DNA from: Patescibacteria group bacterium
Lineage (GTDB): Bacteria > Patescibacteriota > Saccharimonadia > CAILAD01 > BJGX01
NCBI GenBank assembly: GCA_030917065.1
Contig: JAUPVL010000042.1
Location: forward strand, 2,419-26,418
Direction of reading: 5' to 3'
DNA length: 24,000 bases
The position numbers and the translations under genes were made by a program. The notes under the pieces are model-generated. The model saw only the letters and a list, made by a program, of their open reading frames with translations, was not told the DNA's origin and made no database searches. This document shows positions 2,543 through 17,171 of the stretch, piece after piece (within the stretch, counting starts at the first letter, position 1; each line of letters starts with the position of its first letter).

Positions 2543-5392
2543 ATGAAGAGTCGTAAAAAAATAGTTGTTTTTGATGGCCATGCCTTGGTACACCGAGGTT
2601 ATCATGCTATACCATATCTTACTACTAAAGACGGTACACCCACCAACGCTGTCTATGGCTTTACCATGATGATGCTACTGGCTTTGCGTGAGATACGACC
2701 AGACTACGCTATAGTAGCGTGGGACGCCCCTGGTAAGACTTTTCGACACGATCAGTTCAAAGACTATAAGGCTACACGTGTAAAGGCTCCAGACGAGCTC
2801 TACGCCCAAATGCCACTCACCAAGGACGTGGTCAGTGCATTCAATATTCCACTCATAGAGTCTGCTGGCTATGAGGCAGATGACATCATTGGTACACTGA
2901 CCAAAAACTACGAAAAATCACACGATGTAGTAGTGGTTACCGGCGATCTGGACGAATTACAGCTAGTCAGTGATACTGTCAGTGTATACACTATGCGCAA
3001 AGGCTTCACTGATACATTTATGTACGATCCAGCTGCAGTACACGAGCGCTACGGCGTTACCCCTGAAGAATTCATAGTATACAAAGCACTAAAAGGGGAT
3101 AGTAGTGACAATATACCAGGTGTTGCTGGCATAGGCGACAAAGGAGCGACAGAGCTAGTCGAGAAATACAAAACACTAGATAATATGTACAAACATCTAG
3201 ATGAGATCAAGCCAGCCCTAGCCAAGAAGCTAGAGGCCGGCAAAGACAATGCATATCTGAGTCTAGAACTATCTACTATCAAAAGAGATGTAGATATTGA
3301 ATTTAAGCTCCAAGATGCAGCACTGCATGAATATGATAGAAAAAAAGTCTTTGATCTTTTTCACAAGCTAGAATTCAAAAGCTTGCTATCGAAGTTACCC
3401 AATCAGTCATTTACAGAGGAACAGCAGCTCTCTACCCAAGAAGCAGTAGAGGAGATAGAGACTGCCACTAAGAGTCGAGACCATCTGAAAAAAGCCAAAT
3501 ATCATACTGTGGATTCTGACAAGTCTCTCGACACACTAGTGGCAAAACTAAATAAACAATCAGTGTTTTCGATAGATACCGAGACAACTAGCACCGACGT
3601 GATGAAAGCACATCTGGTGGGTATTTCTGTGTGCTTCGAGGAGTGTGAAGCTTACTACATACCAGTCGGTCACACATTGAACGACAAAGATGACAGTCAT
3701 TACATTGATGACAATAAGAAGACTCAAGCTTCAATTTTTGAAAAAGATGCATCTGAGTATGAGAATCTTAGCCTAGCCGACGGTCAATTGTCCAGACAAA
3801 AAGTACTAGATGCTTTAAGGCCCGTACTAGAAAGCACCAAGATAGGCAAGATCGGCCACAATCTCAAATATGATTATCAGATATTTGCAAACAACGGTGT
3901 GCATATGGAAAATATTGTATTTGATACGATGGTCGCAGCATTTCTTATCAATCCTATCGGTAGAGCACAGACTTTATCAGAGCTAGCATACGCGGAGTTG
4001 GGTATATCGATGATAGATATAGAAGAACTAATAGGAAAAAAAGGTAAGAGCCAAGGATCTTTTAACGAGGTGGAGGTATCAAAGGCCACTCAGTATGCCG
4101 CCGAAGATGCCGATGTTGCATTGCGCTTGTACAATAAACTGACTCAAGCGCTCGAACATGAACCTACTGGTACCAAAAAACTCGCCAATATGGCTCGGCA
4201 ATTGGAGTGGCCACTGATAGAAGTATTGGGTGATATGGAGTTGACTGGCGTCACTCTGGACGTGGCATATCTAGGCAAACTAGCCAAAGAGTTTGGTTCA
4301 AAACTGGATAAAATAAAATCAGCCATCTACAAACATGCTGGACGTGAGTTCAATATTAGTTCTACCCAACAGCTCAAAGTGATACTTTTTGATGAGCTCA
4401 AGATAGACACTACTGGTCTCAAAAAGATCAAAACAGGTGTGAGCACTGCAGCAGGAGAGCTAGAGAAGCTCAAAGGTAAGCACCCTATAGTAGATGAGTT
4501 GTTTGAGTATCGAGAACTTACCAAGCTCATGAGCACCTACGTCGAAGCTTTGCCTAACTATGTAGCAAGCGACGGAAAGATACACACTAGCTACAACCAG
4601 ACTATCGCTCAAACTGGACGTCTCAATAGCACCAATCCCAATCTACAAAACATACCCGTACGAACAGTAGAGGGCAAACGCATTCGCAGAGCCTTTGTAG
4701 TAGATGAAAGGAATGTATTTGTATCCGCAGACTACAGCCAGATAGAGCTCAGACTAGCTGCCGATCTTGCAGGTGACAAGCCGATGATCAAGGCATTCAA
4801 AGACGGTATGGACATACATACGCTGACAAGTGCTGAGATGTTTGGTATCAAACCCAGTGAAGTTACACCTGAGCAGCGCTATGCCGCCAAGGCCATCAAC
4901 TTTGGTGTGTTATACGGCATGAACACCCATGGTCTGGCAGTAGCTACAGGGTTTAGTTACGAGCAGTCCAAAGAATTTATAGATAGGTATTTTGAGTTGC
5001 GAAAGGGTGTGGCTGACTACATAGCTAGCATCAAAAAGATGGCACACGACAAAGGCTACACTGAGACTATCTTTGGCAGAAGAAGACCTTGCCCGGACGT
5101 GCGTTCGAGCAATTTTATAGTACGTTCGGCGGCTGAACGAGCAGCTGTCAATATGCCTTTGCAAGGTACCGCTGCCGATATGATGAAGCTAGCGATGATT
5201 CGGATACACAAGAAGCTACCCAAAGATGCCAAGTTGATATTACAAATCCATGATGAATTGGTGGTAGAATGTCCAAAAGCTTTGTCCAAAGAAGTTGCCA
5301 AGATTATGCAAACTGAGATGGTAGGGGTACATAAGTTCAAAGTGCCGATAGAAGTAGATATATCCTTCGGAGACAACTGGGGAGAGCTGTAG
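2543..5392 (+). CDS. polA: DNA polymerase I (5' nuclease + 3'-5' exo-like + family A polymerase domains)
   Basis: 5' nuclease motifs are present (VVFDGHALVHRGYHA, GDSSDNIPGVAGIGDKGA). Pol A motif A is DYSQIELR, motif B is RYAAKAINFGVLYGM and motif C is QIHDELVVE. I prefer ATG 2543 (MKSRKKIVVFDG...) over the track start 2513 because TGcTATAAT at 2525-2533 lies inside the longer ORF. Confidence 0.95.
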   Translation: MKSRKKIVVFDGHALVHRGYHAIPYLTTKDGTPTNAVYGFTMMMLLALREIRPDYAIVAWDAPGKTFRHDQFKDYKATRVKAPDELYAQMPLTKDVVSAFNIPLIESAGYEADDIIGTLTKNYEKSHDVVVVTGDLDELQLVSDTVSVYTMRKGFTDTFMYDPAAVHERYGVTPEEFIVYKALKGDSSDNIPGVAGIGDKGATELVEKYKTLDNMYKHLDEIKPALAKKLEAGKDNAYLSLELSTIKRDVDIEFKLQDAALHEYDRKKVFDLFHKLEFKSLLSKLPNQSFTEEQQLSTQEAVEEIETATKSRDHLKKAKYHTVDSDKSLDTLVAKLNKQSVFSIDTETTSTDVMKAHLVGISVCFEECEAYYIPVGHTLNDKDDSHYIDDNKKTQASIFEKDASEYENLSLADGQLSRQKVLDALRPVLESTKIGKIGHNLKYDYQIFANNGVHMENIVFDTMVAAFLINPIGRAQTLSELAYAELGISMIDIEELIGKKGKSQGSFNEVEVSKATQYAAEDADVALRLYNKLTQALEHEPTGTKKLANMARQLEWPLIEVLGDMELTGVTLDVAYLGKLAKEFGSKLDKIKSAIYKHAGREFNISSTQQLKVILFDELKIDTTGLKKIKTGVSTAAGELEKLKGKHPIVDELFEYRELTKLMSTYVEALPNYVASDGKIHTSYNQTIAQTGRLNSTNPNLQNIPVRTVEGKRIRRAFVVDERNVFVSADYSQIELRLAADLAGDKPMIKAFKDGMDIHTLTSAEMFGIKPSEVTPEQRYAAKAINFGVLYGMNTHGLAVATGFSYEQSKEFIDRYFELRKGVADYIASIKKMAHDKGYTETIFGRRRPCPDVRSSNFIVRSAAERAAVNMPLQGTAADMMKLAMIRIHKKLPKDAKLILQIHDELVVECPKALSKEVAKIMQTEMVGVHKFKVPIEVDISFGDNWGEL

Positions 5393-8154: not shown

Positions 8155-8389
8155 ACCACCTGCGGGCGCGGTCGAGATCTCGTTGGAGATCACGGTTCTG
8201 GGCTCGCAGGTCCTCAGCACGACGGCGCTGGAGCACTAGCAGGGTGATGAGGACGACCACGACAGCGATCAGTCCGAACACCACCGGGTAGCTTGCACAT
8301 GCCGCGATGATGAACACTCCCGCAGCTAGGGCGAATATCCCTTTCGCCAGGTTGTCGAAGAACTTCTGGACGGGCTTGGACTCAGCCAA
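8153..8389 (-). CDS. High-GC small membrane protein (78 aa) with Arg-rich helical tail; hypothetical
   Basis: SD AAGGAG precedes the ATG (revcomp of ctctccttctg). One or two hydrophobic helices (GIFALAAGVFIIAACASYPVVFGLIAVVVVLITLLVL) are followed by QRRRAEDLRAQNRDLQRDLDRARRW. Local GC is about 62% (37/60 at 8221-8280) and third positions are mostly G/C by eye. Confidence 0.6.
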   Translation of the reverse strand: MAESKPVQKFFDNLAKGIFALAAGVFIIAACASYPVVFGLIAVVVVLITLLVLQRRRAEDLRAQNRDLQRDLDRARRW

Positions 8390-10628: not shown

Positions 10629-10856
10629 ATGGATAAAGATTTGGAGCGCACACTTGATGCCGAAGAACGGGCGGGATGTCTTGGTGTTTTGCAGTTTGTT
10701 GCCGCTATTGTTGCAACGGGTTGTGTACTTTTCGCCGATATCTGGTGGCTGACTCGTGTGGCTTATGTAGTTATTGCTATTGGTATGTGGCTGGGTGCAT
10801 GGCGCAATCTCACGAATCCATGGCGACTTATAGATCGTAAGGATAACAATGACTGA
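10629..10856 (+). CDS. Small two-helix membrane protein (75 aa), hypothetical
   Basis: SD AAGGAG with 7-nt spacing precedes ATG 10629. Two hydrophobic helices (CLGVLQFVAAIVATGCVLFA, VAYVVIAIGMWLGAW). Its stop overlaps the next start (ATGACTGA, 10849-10856), implying translational coupling. Confidence 0.55.
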   Translation: MDKDLERTLDAEERAGCLGVLQFVAAIVATGCVLFADIWWLTRVAYVVIAIGMWLGAWRNLTNPWRLIDRKDNND

Positions 10857-11226
10857 TCAAGAAAACCCGTCTTTTGATGATTGGGCAACTCGAGTGAAGC
10901 CCAGTGAGTACGCAGAGTATCTTGGAGGACACTTCCGTCGACCTTGGATGTCAAAAGTCGACCTAGCTGACCGAGCATTAATTGCATCTTTTCTAGAAAT
11001 GCAGATGCCTGATGGTCGTACTATCGCACATTGGTTGGATGAATTACCTGAGGCGGAGGACGAAATACGCCTCTTGCGGGCCGAGAACGAAGAAGCCCGC
11101 CATGCCATCAATGAGGCGCTTGGGTGTGCGTTCATTCATCACATGTGCGAATGCGGTGATACTGTGAATTGCGGTGTATGCCACATGGTTGCTCGGCTAC
11201 AGGCGTCGTCAGGGAGACAGTCCTAG
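10849..11226 (+). CDS. Hypothetical 125-aa protein with a C-terminal Cys/His cluster (putative Zn site)
   Basis: It overlaps the upstream ORF by 8 nt. It contains the acidic helix ELPEAEDEIRLLRAENEEARHAINEA followed by HHMCECGDTVNCGVCH. No family recognised. Confidence 0.5.
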   Translation: MTDQENPSFDDWATRVKPSEYAEYLGGHFRRPWMSKVDLADRALIASFLEMQMPDGRTIAHWLDELPEAEDEIRLLRAENEEARHAINEALGCAFIHHMCECGDTVNCGVCHMVARLQASSGRQS

Positions 11227-11360
11227 AATAAATATAGTCGTCAAAGAGTAGTAATATTTGGTCAGTAATGACCATCTAGCTCTTTGGCGGCGTCTATCTA
11301 AAACTTCTTAGTTTTACTGATGAGCTCTAGATAAGGGCGAAATAGACAAACAAAACAAAG

Positions 11361-12716: not shown

Positions 12717-12729
12717 TTGTTGCAATATA

Positions 12730-12758
12730 TTGACAAAATGTAAGTATTTTGGTATACT
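12730..12758 (+). promoter_or_regulatory. Near-consensus promoter with no gene behind it
   Basis: TTGACA (12730-12735), a 17-nt spacer ending in TGg, then TATACT (12753-12758). It starts 14 nt after the TrmB-like stop. Confidence 0.6.
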
Positions 12759-13058
12759 TCTCTTTGTCAGGCCAACGTACCATGTTTGAGTGATAGCTAA
12801 GACTCAGTCGAAAGAACGTCCAATGCTGCTTAAAACAGAGTGCAGAGGTCGCCGAGAAGTCCTCGGCATAGACACGAGCAATGGAGAGATACCGTGGACG
12901 CTGCCTTCTCCACCACCTGAACATTTCCGGCTCCGCCGGCGCAACCAACACATTTCTGACTGAACCCACGCGACGCAAGTCGTAGACACGAGCGAAAGCT
13001 CGCAACACCAAACGGTTCTGTCGGGAACTAACTGGACCAGTCATTGGTCCTTCGTCTA

Positions 13059-13095
13059 GGGCTCGGTGCCCCCGTAACTTGAGGGCACCGAGCCC
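13059..13095 (+). repeat. 13-bp hairpin related to hairpin b of the 3' T modules
   Basis: gggctcggtgccc (13059-13071) pairs with gggcaccgagccc (13083-13095). It shares the GGCYCG...CGRGCCC frame with 15324-15349 and 15930-15953. CTACA follows twice (13099-13103 and 13113-13117). Confidence 0.55.
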
Positions 13096-13116
13096 AGACT
13101 ACACTTCGATAACTAC

Positions 13117-13141
13117 AACCAGGCATTATGCCTGGTTTTTT
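13117..13141 (+). terminator. Intrinsic terminator ending the candidate ncRNA
   Basis: aaccaggca (13117-13125) pairs with tgcctggtt (13129-13137) and runs into a T6 tract (13136-13141). Confidence 0.75.
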
Positions 13142-13258
13142 CGTACAAAATGATACAAATAGCCAATTTAATGTAATTATTAATATATCTATGACACTAA
13201 ATACACGTGTTTTAACAGGTATAGAGCTATATAAATACAAATAAACTGACAAAAACTA

Positions 13259-13287
13259 TTGACAAGTTTTAATATATTTGCTATACT
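13259..13287 (+). promoter_or_regulatory. Near-consensus promoter of the second island unit
   Basis: TTGACA (13259-13264), a 17-nt spacer ending in TGc, then TATACT (13282-13287), inside an AT-rich spacer (13142-13330). Confidence 0.6.
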
Positions 13288-13339
13288 ACCAATCAGTTCT
13301 TTGAAGTGCCAATTTCCAAAACCTTTATAGGGGGATTCT

Positions 13340-13531
13340 GTGGCTAGCACGTTCACTCGCAAGTGTGGCATGGCCACTCGCACTCCTTCTGCCTTGACTT
13401 GGGCAGTCGTGGTCGAGTGCGGCAACGGGGAGGTGCACTACTTCGAACGTAGTGCTTGCCACCCCGACGCCGTCGTGGCGTACATCCAGCGGGAGTTTCC
13501 CGACTGTGACTACGTCATGGCTCTGGCCTAA
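13340..13531 (+). CDS. Hypothetical 63-aa protein with high-GC codon usage
   Basis: GTG start preceded by GGGGGA (13330-13335). GC3 is 47/63 (75%) with only 2 A-ending codons, a coding signature typical of a high-GC donor. No family recognised. An alternative ATG start lies at 13370 without an SD. Confidence 0.5.
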   Translation: MASTFTRKCGMATRTPSALTWAVVVECGNGEVHYFERSACHPDAVVAYIQREFPDCDYVMALA

Positions 13532-14441
13532 CGACTTCGGATCGGGGGCTTGATAAGTCCTGGCAACAGAAGCCTGTAGAGTGAGCAAAAAGAAGCTCTA
13601 TAGACACTATCCGAGTATGCTCTCGACAAAAGCCGCCTGGTAGTAGGCATTGAAGCCCGAGCAATCGAGCAACTACCAACCTCGTCTGATATATCAGACG
13701 AGGAGCAAGTCTGCTGGTAAAGTGCCAGCACTGATGAGCCCGAACTATCTAGTTCAACTAGGGCGAAACTGCACTTTGTAAATACTAATTCTGTGGATGT
13801 GGCCAGTGCTACATATTAAAACATACCAATAGCAGATTGGCCGCCCACAGAAATGGTAAATACAATATCCGAACCTTGTCATTATGAGCAGTAGCTTTCG
13901 AACCGAGTATATAGGTATATATATTTAGTTCGAAAGCTATGTGCTTTCAAAAAGATAGTAAGGTCACAGCAAATGGCGGGACTGCTGCCTCACTGATGAC
14001 CTGCCTGTAGTATGCGCGTTTCCCGACACGATCGGGCCGATGCATCTACGGGCGAAATCATGAACTGATATATATGAGAGTATATATCAGCTTCAACTGC
14101 TTGGGTGTCGCAGCTCTTCGTGAAAGCGGATGAGCGCCACCCGAGCAGGATATCGCTGCCACAACAATCTGGTCGGAGAGGCATCAACTTCGACGCACTG
14201 CTCAAAACGGCGTCAAGTCGGGTGAGAGTGGTGTTCTGCGTACGTCCTTCGCAGACAGTAGGGAGGTAATAATTGATCCGAGCCCGTGCAGAATCCTGCG
14301 CCGCAAACAACGCGACTCTGATAAGAGTGGGTAAAAAAAAGTCGGATCCGGGGACCCTAGTGGCCAATGATGATGTTCCTTCCCCGGTGCACGAGTGGGT
14401 GAAACCACGAGTGTTCATGAAAGGGAACGTCAAGCTCGCGG

Positions 14442-14484
14442 CAGCTCGTCGCTCTCCGTCAGTAGACGGATTGAGCGCAGCTGC
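14442..14484. repeat. Hairpin module H, copy 1 (43 nt)
   Basis: Sequence cagctcgtcgctctcc-gtcagtagac-gga-ttgagcgcagctgc. It folds as cagct/agctg + cgctc/gagcg + tccgtc/gacgga with loop agta. Confidence 0.7.
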
Positions 14485-15005
14485 CCATATTGCGGAACCC
14501 GTCCACGACCTTGCCAGTCGCCTGGTAAGATAGTAGATACGTTGTTCTGCGAGGTCTGAGTCAATCGCCACCCAAAAAGGTAACGTGGGGTTGAAACACC
14601 CCTGGCGGTAAGATCCCGAAAGAGCTGACGTAATGCTCGAAAAAATGTGCTAACATAGGCCTTTTTCCTTACGATAAAATTCAGATAGTCGTGAGGTCGT
14701 CCACCCCTTTGGGGTCCCACTAGTTGGGGCTCCGGAGGGTCTCAACAAGAGAGCTTGAATTATCAAGCTTTGCTGCTGAGACCCTAAAAAGTCTCGAACC
14801 TTGTCATTTGATGTTAAGATTTTGCTGGATGGAGCATAGAAGTGCAGATGTAATCCAGCTACTAGGGTGTCAGTGCGCACATAAGACCCCCTTCTGAGAA
14901 GTGACTAGAGTGGACTGCCCAAACGCAGACAGCTAGACAACTTTGTCAACTCAGATTAAACCAAAAAAAGCCGATAACGCTCCAATAATTCGGCCCATAT
15001 CGCGA

Positions 15006-15048
15006 CAGCTCGTCGCTCTCCAGAGTCATCTGGATCGAGCGCAGCTGC
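15006..15048. repeat. Hairpin module H, copy 2 (43 nt)
   Basis: Sequence cagctcgtcgctctcc-agagtcatct-gga-tcgagcgcagctgc. The outer arms match copy 1 except for one position. The inner stem is tccaga/tctgga, so three base pairs changed on both strands. It lies about 65 nt upstream of ATG 15114. Confidence 0.7.
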
Positions 15049-15113
15049 TAAATCCTTGAGTTTCAATCCCGCGACTCAAGCTCGTACCACACAACACCAC
15101 TGAAGGAGGTGAA

Positions 15114-15311
15114 ATGGACGAGACCAACGACCTCGACGGCATGATCCAGGCGGCGGATCTCATGCTCACGGTCATGATGGCCGAGGGCATGACCCCCGCA
15201 GAGATCTGCCTGGAGTTCTTCGCGATGGGCCACGAGAGTGGCCACATCTGCGCACAGGCGCACGAAGAGCCCCTCGAGGACGACCCCAAGGTGTCCGCCG
15301 GCTACCTGTAA
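15114..15311 (+). CDS. Hypothetical acidic 65-aa protein with very high GC3
   Basis: A perfect SD AAGGAGGTGA (15103-15112) precedes ATG 15114. GC3 is 60/65 (92%). Local GC is 36/60 at 15121-15180. No family recognised. Confidence 0.65.
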   Translation: MDETNDLDGMIQAADLMLTVMMAEGMTPAEICLEFFAMGHESGHICAQAHEEPLEDDPKVSAGYL

Positions 15312-15360
15312 GTGCCGGCACCCGGCCCGAATCTTCACAGATTCGGGCCCCTACCAAAGA
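15288..15360 (+). repeat. 3' module T, copy 1 (two hairpins + CTACC motifs)
   Basis: Sequence aaggtgtccgccggctacctgtaagtgccggcacccggcccgaatcttcacagattcgggcccctaccaaaga. Hairpin a is gccggc (15297-15302)/gccggc (15314-15319), with the ORF stop TAA in its loop. Hairpin b is ggcccgaatct (15324-15334)/agattcgggcc (15339-15349). CTACC occurs at 15302-15306 and 15351-15355. Confidence 0.7.
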
Positions 15361-15432
15361 AGGTTACAATATAATCTCTTTTGGTCGGGAAAGTCCCGAC
15401 TCACTCAGTGAGTAGCACCTTGGAGCAATCAA

Positions 15433-15885
15433 ATGGAAGATTTCAAAGAGTTGTTCGATCGGTTTCTGACCGTCGTGCGTGTGTCCAACGACATCCCTGA
15501 CGAGATGACTATCGAGGAGTTTCTGAGCAAGAAGTGGAACTTCTGCGACCCAAGCCCTTGCAACATGAGAGTGGAGGTCACTTGGGATGGCAGCTACTCC
15601 CTGTGGAGCCTTCGCTTCGACAGCACGGGTCGAGTCAACGATGAGCGCCTCTGGATCCGTCGCGACTGCACGCATGAGGAGGCCATCACCCAGGCCATCG
15701 GCCAAAATATGGGCGGCAACGTTGTCGAAATCTTGACCAAAGTCATCCCAGACATTCAGATGACCTCTGGGACTGGTGACGATTCGGAGGAGTTCTGGAT
15801 CGTTTGGGAGTGGTACAGCCCAATTTTCACCGGGAAGGAGGACAGTGGTCTGCAGGACGGAGATTGGCAAGAGGCCTTGCTCTAG
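15433..15885 (+). CDS. Hypothetical Trp-rich acidic 150-aa protein
   Basis: SD GGAG (15422-15425) with 7-nt spacing precedes ATG 15433. Third positions look mostly G/C by eye (not counted). Two tight 5' UTR hairpins lie at 15384-15400 and 15400-15412. It runs in the same direction as the flanking modules. The 187-aa antisense ORF 15364..15927 is treated as a shadow ORF. Confidence 0.6.
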   Translation: MEDFKELFDRFLTVVRVSNDIPDEMTIEEFLSKKWNFCDPSPCNMRVEVTWDGSYSLWSLRFDSTGRVNDERLWIRRDCTHEEAITQAIGQNMGGNVVEILTKVIPDIQMTSGTGDDSEEFWIVWEWYSPIFTGKEDSGLQDGDWQEALL

Positions 15886-15893
15886 AGAGTGCA

Positions 15894-15964
15894 AAGGTGA
15901 CCGCCGGCTACCTGTAAATGCCGGCACTCGGCTCGAGTCTTTTGACTCGAGCCCCTACCAAAGA
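15894..15964 (+). repeat. 3' module T, copy 2
   Basis: Sequence aaggtgaccgccggctacctgtaaatgccggcactcggctcgagtcttttgactcgagcccctaccaaaga. Hairpin a is conserved. Hairpin b is ggctcgagtc (15930-15939)/gactcgagcc (15944-15953), with two compensatory pair changes relative to copy 1. CTACC occurs at 15908-15912 and 15955-15959. Confidence 0.7.
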
Positions 15965-16007
15965 TATCAAGCACATTGATGCATTTGGTAAGAAATCAAT
16001 AATATAC

Positions 16008-16036
16008 TTGACATAAGAAGTTTAGTTTGGTATAAT
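16008..16036 (+). promoter_or_regulatory. Consensus promoter of the DHH-family gene
   Basis: TTGACA (16008-16013), a 17-nt spacer ending in TGg, then TATAAT (16031-16036). Confidence 0.6.
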
Positions 16037-16061
16037 ACTGCATTAATTAGACAAATTAGTT

Positions 16062-17171
16062 ATGCAACAAGAATTGACCCCCAAACAACAAACTGTAGAG
16101 CTTATCAAACAAGCCAACCACATACTGCTCGTTACTGGCAAAAACCCCAATAACGACCAGCTTAGTGCTATGGTAGCTCTGGAACTTATCCTGAAACGTG
16201 CAGGCAAACAAGTGAGTGCGATAGTCACTAGTGAACTACCCAAGGTAGCCAAGATACTAGACACCCACACCATTAGTAGAGATCTGACCGGTATAAGGGA
16301 TTTTGTAGTACGACTAGACACCACCAATGTAGAAGTAGACAAACTACGCTATGAGGTCAATGATAACAATATCGAAATAATAGTATCACCGTTTTCAGGC
16401 AATTTTACTTCCCAAGATGCTAGTTTTGACTACGGAGCATACAAATTTGACTTAGTGATAGTACTAGGAGTGAGCCAGATAGCACGTATAGACTCTATAC
16501 TCGAGCAAAACCCTACAATATTTGATGGGTTGCACTTGGTAAATATCGATTGCCATAGAAGCAACGAACAGTACGGTAGTGTGAACTTTGTAGACGCCGG
16601 TGCTAGTAGTGTTTGTGAGATGCTAGTAGGTATCATCGAGTCAGTTGCTCAAGGCATGATTGATTATCATGTAGCAACAGCATTACTTGCCGGTATCATG
16701 GGAGCAACTCAGGGATTTACAAATCAAAACACCTCTGCCAAGAGTCTTACTATAGCTGCCCAGATGATGAGTGGTGGTGCCAAGCAACAAGATATAGTCA
16801 ATACATTGTTTGCAGGGCAATCAAATACTGCCAACACTGAGAGCAATAGAGCTGATCGCAATAATGCCAAGACAGAGCTCAAATCACATCAATCAAAAAA
16901 TATCCGCAAAGATGAGCCAAAAGCACAAGAAACTATTGCCCAAAAACTAGCCAAACAAGGTATAGAGCTCACCGAAGAAGGTGTCGTAGATGCCAGGACA
17001 GGCAAGGTACTAGAAGAAGAAGTATTGGATGATGACTTGGACAAAATAAACGATGGGGATGAGCAGAGCTCAAAAAAGTTCAAAAATCCGCAAGCGGATC
17101 AGTCGCACCAGGAAACTTCAAGGGCAAATACACATCAGCAGGCATCCAAGGGCTCTAAAAAAAACCGATAA
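16062..17171 (+). CDS. NrnA-like DHH-domain protein with degenerate catalytic motifs and a low-complexity C-terminal tail
   Basis: It is collinear with B. subtilis NrnA (recalled from memory), but key residues are replaced. ILLVTGKNPNNDQLSAM stands where NrnA has HRHVRPDPDAYGS. VIVLGVSQ replaces VIVCDTAN, NIDCHRSN replaces KIDHHPNE, and GIMGATQGF replaces GIVGDTGRF. There is no DHHA1 GGGH domain; about 130 residues of K/Q/E/N-rich tail take its place. Confidence 0.6.
   Translation: MQQELTPKQQTVELIKQANHILLVTGKNPNNDQLSAMVALELILKRAGKQVSAIVTSELPKVAKILDTHTISRDLTGIRDFVVRLDTTNVEVDKLRYEVNDNNIEIIVSPFSGNFTSQDASFDYGAYKFDLVIVLGVSQIARIDSILEQNPTIFDGLHLVNIDCHRSNEQYGSVNFVDAGASSVCEMLVGIIESVAQGMIDYHVATALLAGIMGATQGFTNQNTSAKSLTIAAQMMSGGAKQQDIVNTLFAGQSNTANTESNRADRNNAKTELKSHQSKNIRKDEPKAQETIAQKLAKQGIELTEEGVVDARTGKVLEEEVLDDDLDKINDGDEQSSKKFKNPQADQSHQETSRANTHQQASKGSKKNR

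Follow-up and report, generated by a model that had tools for sequence, protein, structure and literature searches.

A conserved structured RNA with a predicted 5' hammerhead ribozyme at a tmRNA-linked locus of Saccharibacteria

The window analyzed here is a 24,000-nucleotide (nt) stretch of DNA from a Patescibacteria group bacterium of the Saccharimonadia (contig JAUPVL010000042.1, positions 2,419 to 26,418), and the subject of this work is an element within it, denoted X (~13712-14800, ~1.1 kb), that is most likely a new large non-coding RNA matured by a ribozyme. X is located in an island (12717-16000) with a G+C content of ~50%, compared to ~42% for the genome. According to Pfam annotation, one flank of the island carries the housekeeping genes rpoD, polA, an ABC transporter gene, fpg, holA, rpsT and a gene for a TrmB-like regulator, and beyond the island lie a DHH-family (NrnA-like) gene, truB, rpsO, pnp, a UDG-family gene and, at the end of the window, the gene for RNase J. 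The order TrmB-like gene, X, DHH gene is common to the window and its relatives among the Saccharibacteria, which were gathered through the DHH protein, TrmB homologs and one DNA pattern; the scan of metagenomes with a DNA pattern contributed one partial locus, L024. Contigs encoding the same proteins as the window originate from activated-sludge metagenomes. A phage or mobile-element origin of the locus was rejected, given that the flanks consist of housekeeping genes, that none of 50,697 phage records matched positions 13100-15450 by blastn, that the DNA pattern HH+D1 had 0 matches in IMG/VR, and that PHROGs contained nothing for the small open reading frames (ORFs).

The interval 13532-15060 had been singled out from the letters of the window alone as GC-rich DNA with no credible ORF and unusually long perfect hairpins. 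This original prediction entertained a very large structured RNA, a long structured leader for the ORFs at 15114 and 15433, or decayed horizontally acquired coding DNA, and left the transcribed strand open. The features that it named are present in the sequence: a 193-aa minus-strand ORF (13990-14571, GTG start) and an 86-aa plus-strand ORF (14273-14533, TTG start) in the ORF list; perfect stems at 13680-13691/13692-13703 (12 bp), 13892-13903/13928-13939 (12 bp) and 14065-14074/14081-14090 (10 bp); a nested helix at 14736-14785 and a two-level helix at 14566-14607; and an A8 run (14333-14340) and an A7 run with a hairpin (about 14964-14995). The interval is indeed GC-rich relative to the genome, with a G+C fraction of 0.495 versus 0.419 for the window outside the island. 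Its boundaries required a small correction, with 13532-13703 being assigned to the 3' untranslated region (UTR) of a 63-aa ORF, 13704-13773 to a hammerhead ribozyme, ~13712-14800 to the conserved RNA, and 14800-15113 to the 5' UTR of a 65-aa ORF. No tRNA or transfer-messenger RNA (tmRNA) gene was found within the interval.

The structure signal of the interval stands out across the window. In a scan of all 24 kb on both strands, in which the folding energy of 150-nt segments was compared with 30 dinucleotide shuffles each, the mean z-score inside the interval was -3.7 on the plus strand and -2.3 on the minus strand, versus about -0.55 and -0.50 outside, with the lowest single segment reaching -13. 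The 201-nt stretch 13960-14160 yielded a z-score of -7.1, with 0 of 200 shuffles being as stable. Thus, the stems exceed chance expectation and are more stable on the plus strand. The interval is not coding, as the original prediction had held: both ORFs are disrupted in homologous loci, and no related proteins were found for them. In the related locus L014, the 86-aa and 193-aa ORFs each show three indels of lengths not divisible by three, plus in-frame stops; substitutions are spread over the three codon positions without a third-position bias (12/17/12 and 30/28/23, respectively), and non-synonymous codon changes outnumber synonymous ones by 23 to 2 and 46 to 9. None of ten ORFs of the interval matched Pfam, and a search of the 193-aa ORF among 5.8 billion proteins returned, as the sole match, a truncated protein call of the same species with 99% identity. 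As positive controls, the flanking 63-aa and 65-aa ORFs hold exact length and frame in homologs.

Comparison with the related loci shows X to be a collinear set of conserved helices, predicted to number at least 17 (Table 1). DNA homologous to X, with the blocks in the same order, was identified by blastn, nhmmer and MAFFT between the TrmB-like and DHH genes in L004, L014, L025, L037, L018, L028, L030, L016, L020, L021, L022, L023 and L024. Each of four signature motifs has a single occurrence, invariably on the plus strand and in the order domain-1 loop, domain 4, B9 and B10, and a covariance model of the domain-1 hairpin, R1, detected exactly one plus-strand copy in each of 12 loci (E-values of 1e-10 to 4e-14) and nothing credible elsewhere in 261 kb. 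The nucleotide identity of X to its L014 counterpart is 84%, compared to 78-81% for the flanking housekeeping genes. The window copy retains all blocks of X, in order.

Domain 1 closes a conserved A/U-rich loop (CAGUGCU..AUAUUAAAA..AGCAGAUUGG), and the hairpin at 14003-14053 contains the near-invariant AUGCGCG..CCGAyACGAUCGG..CGAUGCAU; within 13961-14053, the pair GGUCACAG/CUGAUGACC is replaced by GGUUGAGG/CCUCAACC in L018 and L030, a compensatory swap. The two hairpins that follow are absent from L018 and L030, and the second of these (14097-14148) is retained in L014 through compensatory changes and weakened in L004, from -33.3 to -21.9 kcal/mol. The central domain, which overlaps the greater part of the 86-aa ORF and a portion of the 193-aa ORF, includes helices 14196-14203/14226-14233, 14258-62/14295-99, 14315-28, 14330-43 (around the A8 run), 14348-54/14381-87 and 14389-98/14405-14, and may be closed by 14155-57/14433-35. 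The apical stem of B9 covaries, being CCGUC/GACGG here, CCAGA/UCUGG in the second copy and in L014, and CUCAAC/GUUGAG in L016. B10 is deleted in L014 and L025.

Table 1. Features of the X locus in the window (positions of the window; all on the plus strand)
Feature	Position	Strand	Details
Promoter P2	13259-13287	+	TTGACA, 17 nt, TATACT, TG before the -10 element; 11 of 12 consensus positions
63-aa ORF, cysteine-rich	13340-13531	+	192-nt frame intact in L014 and L037; 63-aa homolog MASTFTRRCG... in L025
12-bp perfect hairpin	13680-13703	+	Inverted repeat, 8 nt upstream of the predicted cut
Type III hammerhead	13704-13773	+	Predicted cut C13711/U13712
Hammerhead parts		+	Stem I 13712-13730; core CUGAUGA 13731-13737; stem II 13738-13764; then GAA and stem III
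X domain 1	13790-13851	+	Nested helices 13790-96/13845-51 and 13799-13810/13831-13844; covariation
X long hairpin	13886-13946	+	25 bp, AU-rich tip; 9 of 25 pairs changed on both sides
X hairpins 13961-14002 (apical GGCGGGACUGCUGCC) and 14003-14053	13961-14053	+	Covariation
X hairpins 14065-14090 and 14097-14148	14063-14150	+	Only in window, L004, L014, L025, L037 and, diverged, L028
X central multi-helix domain	14155-14435	+	26 of 53 pairs with double changes versus 12.6 +/- 2.4 shuffled
Hairpin B9	14442-14483	+	CAGCUCGUCGCUCU..apical stem..GAUUGAGCGCAGCUG; direct repeats, second copy 15006-15047
Less conserved linker	14484-14704	+	Includes two-level hairpin 14566-14607; patchy similarity to L018 only
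X 3' domain B10	14705-14782	+	Helix 14705-13/14730-38; long hairpin 14739-14757/14764-14782 (GGAGGGUCUCAACA...)
5' UTR of the 65-aa ORF	14800-15113	+	Second B9 copy; Shine-Dalgarno GGAGG at 15104; conserved in L014 and L025
65-aa ORF	15114-15311	+	GHESGHxCA motif, C-terminal AGYL; frame intact in L004, L014, L025 and L018

Covariation was quantified on RNAalifold structures by counting the pairs with changes on both sides, a measure described as rarely fooled by relatedness, against 500 shuffles and against slid alignments. In the 5' part of X (13790-14090; 7 sequences, 80 pairs), 94.0% of the cells are paired (shuffled, 86.7%), and 28 pairs carry double changes, compared to 11.1 +/- 2.5 in shuffled and 4-5 in slid alignments. 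The center (14150-14500; 7 sequences from both clades, 53 pairs; 88.8% of cells paired versus 77.9% when shuffled) has 26 such pairs (slid, 5-10), and the 3' domain (14690-14800; 9 sequences from both clades, 24 pairs; 91.6% versus 80.6%) has 15 (shuffled, 7.7 +/- 1.9; slid, 2-6). In all three regions, 0 of 500 shuffles reached the observed count. Because the alignments are shallow (7-11 sequences) and the structures were derived from those same sequences, we regard this evidence as strong but not final. Over the three alignments, G-U cells number 157 and A-C cells 20, and, together with the promoter and the orientation of the hammerhead described below, this excess places the RNA on the plus strand. 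The conservation of the region in 12 related loci and covariation above all controls bear out the first of the three options initially considered, a very large structured RNA.

At the 5' boundary of X is a type III hammerhead ribozyme which, like the link to tmRNA, had escaped the original prediction. At gathering thresholds, Rfam 15 matches nothing in the whole window; in E-value mode, on both strands, there are only three matches with E <= 0.5, all to Hammerhead_3, at 13704-13773 (+), 11291-11348 (+) and 8055-7980 (-). Since all hammerhead copies found score below the Rfam gathering score, standard annotation misses them here. The match at 13704-13773 scores 29.8 bits, with E-values of 1e-3 in 2.4 kb and 9.7e-3 in 24 kb, and its anatomy is canonical: the CUGAUGA/GAA core is complete, the cleavage triplet is GUC, stem I is 8 bp long, and stem II, of 4 bp, contains an inner hairpin. 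Stem III consists of AGU/ACU extended by GC/GC across a bulged A and is open, stems I and II being capped, and the centroid fold is a three-way junction. Orthologous ribozymes, located with regular expressions and a stem parser, are present in 13 further loci (14 sites with the window), where stems I, II and III differ in sequence yet pair; the ortholog in L021 reaches 43.9 bits (E = 7e-8). CUGAUGA, GAA and a UC cleavage dinucleotide could be assigned in each of the 22 hammerheads parsed across the window and related loci, with covarying stems: UGCUGG/CCAGCA, GGUAAG/CUUACC, UCCUG/CAGGA and CUCGGA/UCCGGG for stem I; GCCC/GGGC, GUUC/GAAC, GCUCU/AGAGC and GUCG/CGAC for stem II; and GCAGU/ACUGC, GCUGU/ACAGC and GAUAGU/ACUAUC for stem III. 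The ribozyme is preceded in every homolog by a hairpin that differs in sequence by lineage but is self-complementary and occupies the same place; in the window, this hairpin is expected to become the 3'-terminal stem-loop of the 63-aa ORF mRNA after cleavage. A second hammerhead within X, at 13993, was rejected, as this CUGAUGA forms the 3' side of a hairpin that covaries in L018 and L030, and Rfam has no match to it.

The two other hammerheads of the window, also of type III, bring the number to three in 24 kb, about one per 8 kb. The element at 8055-7980 on the minus strand (36.6 bits, E = 1.2e-4; predicted cut after 8048) is flanked by the ABC-transporter gene (7954-6152) on one side and, on the other, by a membrane-like ORF of 78 aa and high G+C content (8389-8153, minus strand) with its hairpin, and has orthologs with covarying stems in L014, L025, L030 and L034. 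The element at 11291-11348 on the plus strand (35.0 bits, E = 3.3e-4; predicted cut after 11298) follows a 125-aa ORF (10849-11226), precedes a terminator-like hairpin facing rpsT and is conserved in L035. More canonical type III hammerheads were found at other intergenic sites of distant Saccharibacteria (L031, 1229-1178, and L034, 1652-1602, both on the minus strand), and the motif seems to be widely used in this lineage, to judge from these predicted sites.

The arrangement of signals around X points to a defined transcription unit. Near-consensus plus-strand promoters in the region lie at 12730, 13259 (P2) and 16008, and a plus-strand terminator at 13117-13137. The P2 region is conserved in most related loci, as detected by blastn or regular expression, and we infer that P2 drives a transcript comprising the 63-aa ORF, the hammerhead and X. 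The 63-aa ORF, which has no match in Pfam or PHROGs, is real but lineage-specific; other lineages carry unrelated small ORFs upstream of the hammerhead. Downstream, the 65-aa ORF is a conserved partner of the locus. X is followed by this ORF in the window, L014, L025 and L018, and by a terminator and then tmRNA in L016, L020, L021, L022 and L023. In L021, the sequence of elements runs from P2 (3169-3197) through a small ORF, the hammerhead (predicted cut after 3576) and X to an intrinsic terminator (4650-4669) located 85 nt before tmRNA; the same terminator is present in L016, L020, L022 and L023 by alignment, and tblastn found no homolog of the 65-aa ORF in these five loci. L030 presents yet another layout, with a terminator (8251-8276) and a promoter (8352-8380) leading directly into X, with neither ORF nor hammerhead, and X starting within a few nt of the position that follows the ribozyme elsewhere. 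This replacement of the ribozyme by a promoter argues that the ribozyme serves to define where X begins.

In L016, L018, L020, L021, L022, L023 and L028, Rfam identifies tmRNA downstream of X on the same strand, at a distance of 70-130 nt or of one small ORF, and this conserved neighborhood suggests a link of X to tmRNA. No tmRNA was found in the window by ARAGORN or Rfam, nor at this locus in L014 and L025. X itself was not found in the distant L031, L034 and L039 with nhmmer, motif regular expressions or model R1, and the hammerhead there lies 110-170 nt from an ORF or tmRNA. In L034, 166 nt devoid of promoters and terminators separate a hammerhead without X from the downstream tmRNA, and a homolog of the 65-aa ORF lies upstream of the hammerhead; in L031, a hammerhead without X is followed by a 77-aa homolog of the 65-aa ORF, the stop codon of which is 10 nt before tmRNA. 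These layouts point to an older module consisting of a promoter, a small ORF, a hairpin, a hammerhead, an optional gene of the 65-aa ORF family, and tmRNA, of which X would be an insertion or expansion in one clade. An A/U-looped hairpin after the L034 hammerhead was considered as a version of X and discarded, the resemblance being architectural only and the searches with nhmmer, regular expressions and R1 negative. Pairing of X with tmRNA was likewise rejected: in six genomes, the best RNAduplex energies did not surpass those obtained with shuffled tmRNA, and the sites showed no conservation.

Combining these observations, we propose the following course of events. The sigma-70-type promoter P2 would start a transcript in which the 63-aa ORF comes first, and the hammerhead would self-cleave between C13711 and U13712, leaving the mRNA of the 63-aa ORF to end 8 nt past the 12-bp hairpin with a 2',3'-cyclic phosphate. 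X would be released with a 5'-hydroxyl (5'-OH) and fold into its collinear conserved domains. A 5'-OH is expected to slow 5'-end-dependent decay by RNase J, and we infer that the 5'-OH and the terminal helices stabilize X. In relatives, X would be a separate unit, either ended by an intrinsic terminator 70-130 nt before tmRNA or started by its own promoter without a ribozyme. In the window, the tmRNA gene is absent from the locus and X would continue into the 65-aa ORF, with the transcript expected to run through the 65-aa and 150-aa ORFs to about 15940. X would act as an RNA itself, either as a stable non-coding RNA or as a ribonucleoprotein scaffold tied to the tmRNA locus.

Four other explanations need to be weighed against this proposal, two of which are effectively excluded. 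The interval could be a graveyard of horizontally acquired pseudogenes, as the original prediction allowed: its G+C content is above that of the genome, the two ORFs exist, and the island has evidently been exchanged recently, given that positions 1-2124 of L004 are 98.3% identical to 13979-16100 of the window whereas the DHH, truB and pnp genes of L004 are only ~80% identical, with the switch located near the DHH promoter (~16100), a pattern indicating recombination or transfer between related Saccharibacteria. However, the frameshifts and stops in L014, the even spread of substitutions over codon positions, the lack of Pfam matches and of relatives outside the species, and the presence of covarying helices in the same DNA dispose of the decayed-gene option, to which we assign next to no probability. 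Almost as improbable is a functional transcript on the minus strand, which would draw on the T runs at 14333-14340 and 14961-14994 when read in that direction, including a terminator-like site listed at 14357-14344 and a hairpin (14971-14995) followed by T7. These sites have neither a promoter nor a gene on the minus strand leading into them, the A8 run belongs to an A-rich linker that homologs retain on the plus strand, and L014 and L025 have an interrupted A7 run, so that the minus-strand terminators initially suspected do not hold up; furthermore, the excess of G-U over A-C cells and the lower plus-strand z-scores point the other way, and the hammerhead can be read only on the plus strand.

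Two alternatives remain. In the first, X would be a cis-acting structured leader or spacer. It would serve the 65-aa ORF as a long 5' UTR and would originally have belonged to a primary transcript with the order promoter, ORF, hammerhead and tmRNA, resembling an external transcribed spacer that guides the processing, folding or stability of downstream products. The continuation of X into the 65-aa ORF without a terminator in the window, L014, L025 and L018 agrees with this possibility, as do the hammerhead-tmRNA layouts of L034 and L031, the loss of 3' parts of X from the tmRNA-less L014 and L025, and the weakened B10 hairpin of L004; for the window, the leader for the ORFs at 15114 and 15433 envisaged by the original prediction is thus partly right. 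Other relatives do not fit a leader, as a canonical intrinsic terminator parts X from tmRNA in L016, L020, L021, L022 and L023, where no such ORF was found, and X of L030 has its own promoter; moreover, ~1 kb of conserved loops and covarying helices far exceeds the need of known leaders, and X does not pair with tmRNA above the level of shuffled controls. We consider a leader or spacer role, the main rival of our proposal, possible but rather doubtful. It is unlikely, more so than a leader role, that the window copy is a decaying remnant of a real RNA family after tmRNA left the locus, as might be read from the absence of tmRNA here and its presence next to X in seven relatives, the deletions in L014 and L025, and the divergence of L004. 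In the window copy, all conserved blocks are in order, the z-scores are the strongest of the window, and the hammerhead, promoter and helices are intact, with pairing as in the tmRNA-linked copies; L014, too, retains the 14097-14148 hairpin. Decay of the window copy would in any case be compatible both with a non-coding RNA in its own right and with a leader or spacer.

Several observations weigh against the proposal that X is an independent, ribozyme-matured RNA. The score of the window hammerhead is below the Rfam gathering score of 48.5 bits, and its stem III requires the bulged A. X was not recovered in the distant loci, and, of the loci lacking tmRNA, the two other than the window have lost 3' parts of X, ~340 nt in L014 and ~600 nt in L025. 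No plus-strand terminator separates X from the 65-aa ORF in the window, no consensus promoter was found between P2 and tmRNA in L018, and none between the X terminator and tmRNA in L021, so that X could be part of one long operon transcript. In addition, L004 differs from the window at 25 of 1135 nt of X (2.2%), compared to 1 of 651 nt of ORFs (0.15%), a roughly tenfold excess; hairpins are destabilized by two groups of these differences (from -33.3 to -21.9 and from -29.5 to -18.6 kcal/mol), and others are in loops or change G-U to G-C. This leaves room for relaxed constraint on X where tmRNA is absent. On balance, we hold with high confidence that the locus encodes a conserved, structured plus-strand RNA with a hammerhead at its 5' end, and we lean, with appreciably less assurance, towards X being a functional RNA in its own right and not a cis-acting leader or spacer.

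The surroundings of X contain further elements of interest. Unit T1 (12730-13145, plus strand), GC-rich and ORF-poor, starts with promoter P1 (12730-12758) just after the TrmB stop codon and comprises ~380 nt with a z-score near -8, a 13-bp perfect hairpin (13059-13095) and the terminator at 13117-13137; it has no Rfam match, and its sequence is conserved only in L014, L025, L037 and L038. A P1 promoter followed by GC-rich sequence with a strong hairpin at its end is nevertheless present in almost all related loci, L030 and L034 among them; in L018 and L030, the hairpin is followed by a T tract. T1 may be a second, separate RNA. The independent assemblies L026, L030, L032, L035 and L036 have contig ends within ~0.03-1.2 kb past the TrmB-like gene, in or close to the T1 and X region, which may reflect strain variation or a structured, GC-shifted locus that is hard to assemble. 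Downstream of X, a 73-nt direct repeat (15288-15360 and 15894-15964; 85% identical) flanks an orphan 150-aa ORF (15433-15885), for which the only relatives found are near-identical copies. Each repeat consists of the last codons of the 65-aa ORF (KV[ST]AGYL and stop), a hairpin and CCCCTACCAAAGA. The same module precedes tmRNA in L018; in L014, it is present once and the 150-aa ORF is missing. The cassette with this ORF seems to occupy the former place of tmRNA. An integron attC reading of the module was dropped on inspection by eye, as there are no R'/R'' core sites. The family of the 65-aa ORF (GH[ED][ST]GHxCA, C-terminal AGYL), which has no Pfam match, travels with the hammerhead and tmRNA in L031 (9750-9983) and L034 (8466-8798).

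X is located in what is ancestrally the tmRNA operon of a bacterium of the candidate phyla radiation, the tiny genomes of which would not be expected to keep 1 kb of non-coding "luxury." To our knowledge, large structured bacterial RNAs without an assigned function are few (OLE, GOLLD, ROOL, HEARO and raiA), and none comes from the candidate phyla radiation. Such large ornate RNAs have each opened new biology or structural biology, and the present locus offers a promoter, a ribozyme cut predicted at a single phosphodiester, a 5' end matched by the promoter variant of L030, and a terminator in relatives. The density of hammerheads in the window, all of them sub-threshold, suggests that ribozyme-based RNA processing is under-annotated in Saccharibacteria. 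A more ambitious view, which we put forward only tentatively, is that X represents an undescribed class of large ornate RNAs specific to Saccharibacteria, matured by a hammerhead and coupled to the ribosome-rescue locus of tmRNA, with the sub-threshold hammerheads forming, in these reduced genomes, a general, protein-free system for cutting operon transcripts. We found no literature report of X or of hammerheads linked to tmRNA, nor of hammerheads, large RNAs or tmRNA-linked elements in Saccharibacteria. Even if X were only a spacer, we found no precedent in the literature for a conserved, structured 1-kb spacer in a ribozyme-processed tmRNA operon.

Comparison with known systems clarifies the position of X. 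None of the 4227 families of Rfam 15, including OLE, GOLLD, ROOL, HEARO, raiA, RNase P, 6S, SRP (signal recognition particle) and group I and II introns, matches X. At gathering score, only tmRNA and tRNA were matched in the window and 16 related loci, and, with E <= 10, positions 13100-15500 of the window and 3100-4780 of L021 yielded only Hammerhead_3, the edge of tmRNA, and chance matches to microRNA and small RNA families. The hammerhead shares with type III (RF00008) the CUGAUGA and GAA core, the GUC triplet, three helices with an open stem III, and covarying stems, and, as many bacterial hammerheads, the window element is positioned between units of one transcript. Unlike the typical form, it is sub-threshold, has a bulged stem III, is regularly preceded by a strong hairpin and is linked to a large non-coding RNA and a tmRNA locus, an association that we did not find in the literature. 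Similar to rRNA and tRNA operon leaders and transcribed spacers, X is structured, non-coding, in relatives co-transcribed with a stable RNA (tmRNA) and, as predicted, removed by processing; however, X is much longer, its conservation includes loops and not processing stems alone, a terminator parts it from tmRNA in several genomes, and it persists without tmRNA. With OLE, GOLLD, ROOL, HEARO and raiA, X has in common its length of ~1 kb, many covarying helices, sequence-conserved loops, a GC-rich composition in an AT-rich genome and the lack of coding, and GOLLD and ROOL often neighbor tRNA or tmRNA genes, as X neighbors tmRNA in relatives. It differs from them in matching none of their covariance models even at E <= 10, in being limited to one clade of Saccharibacteria in the loci examined, and in its predicted release by a ribozyme from a co-transcript of mRNA and non-coding RNA; its resemblance to the ornate large RNAs is confined to size and style.

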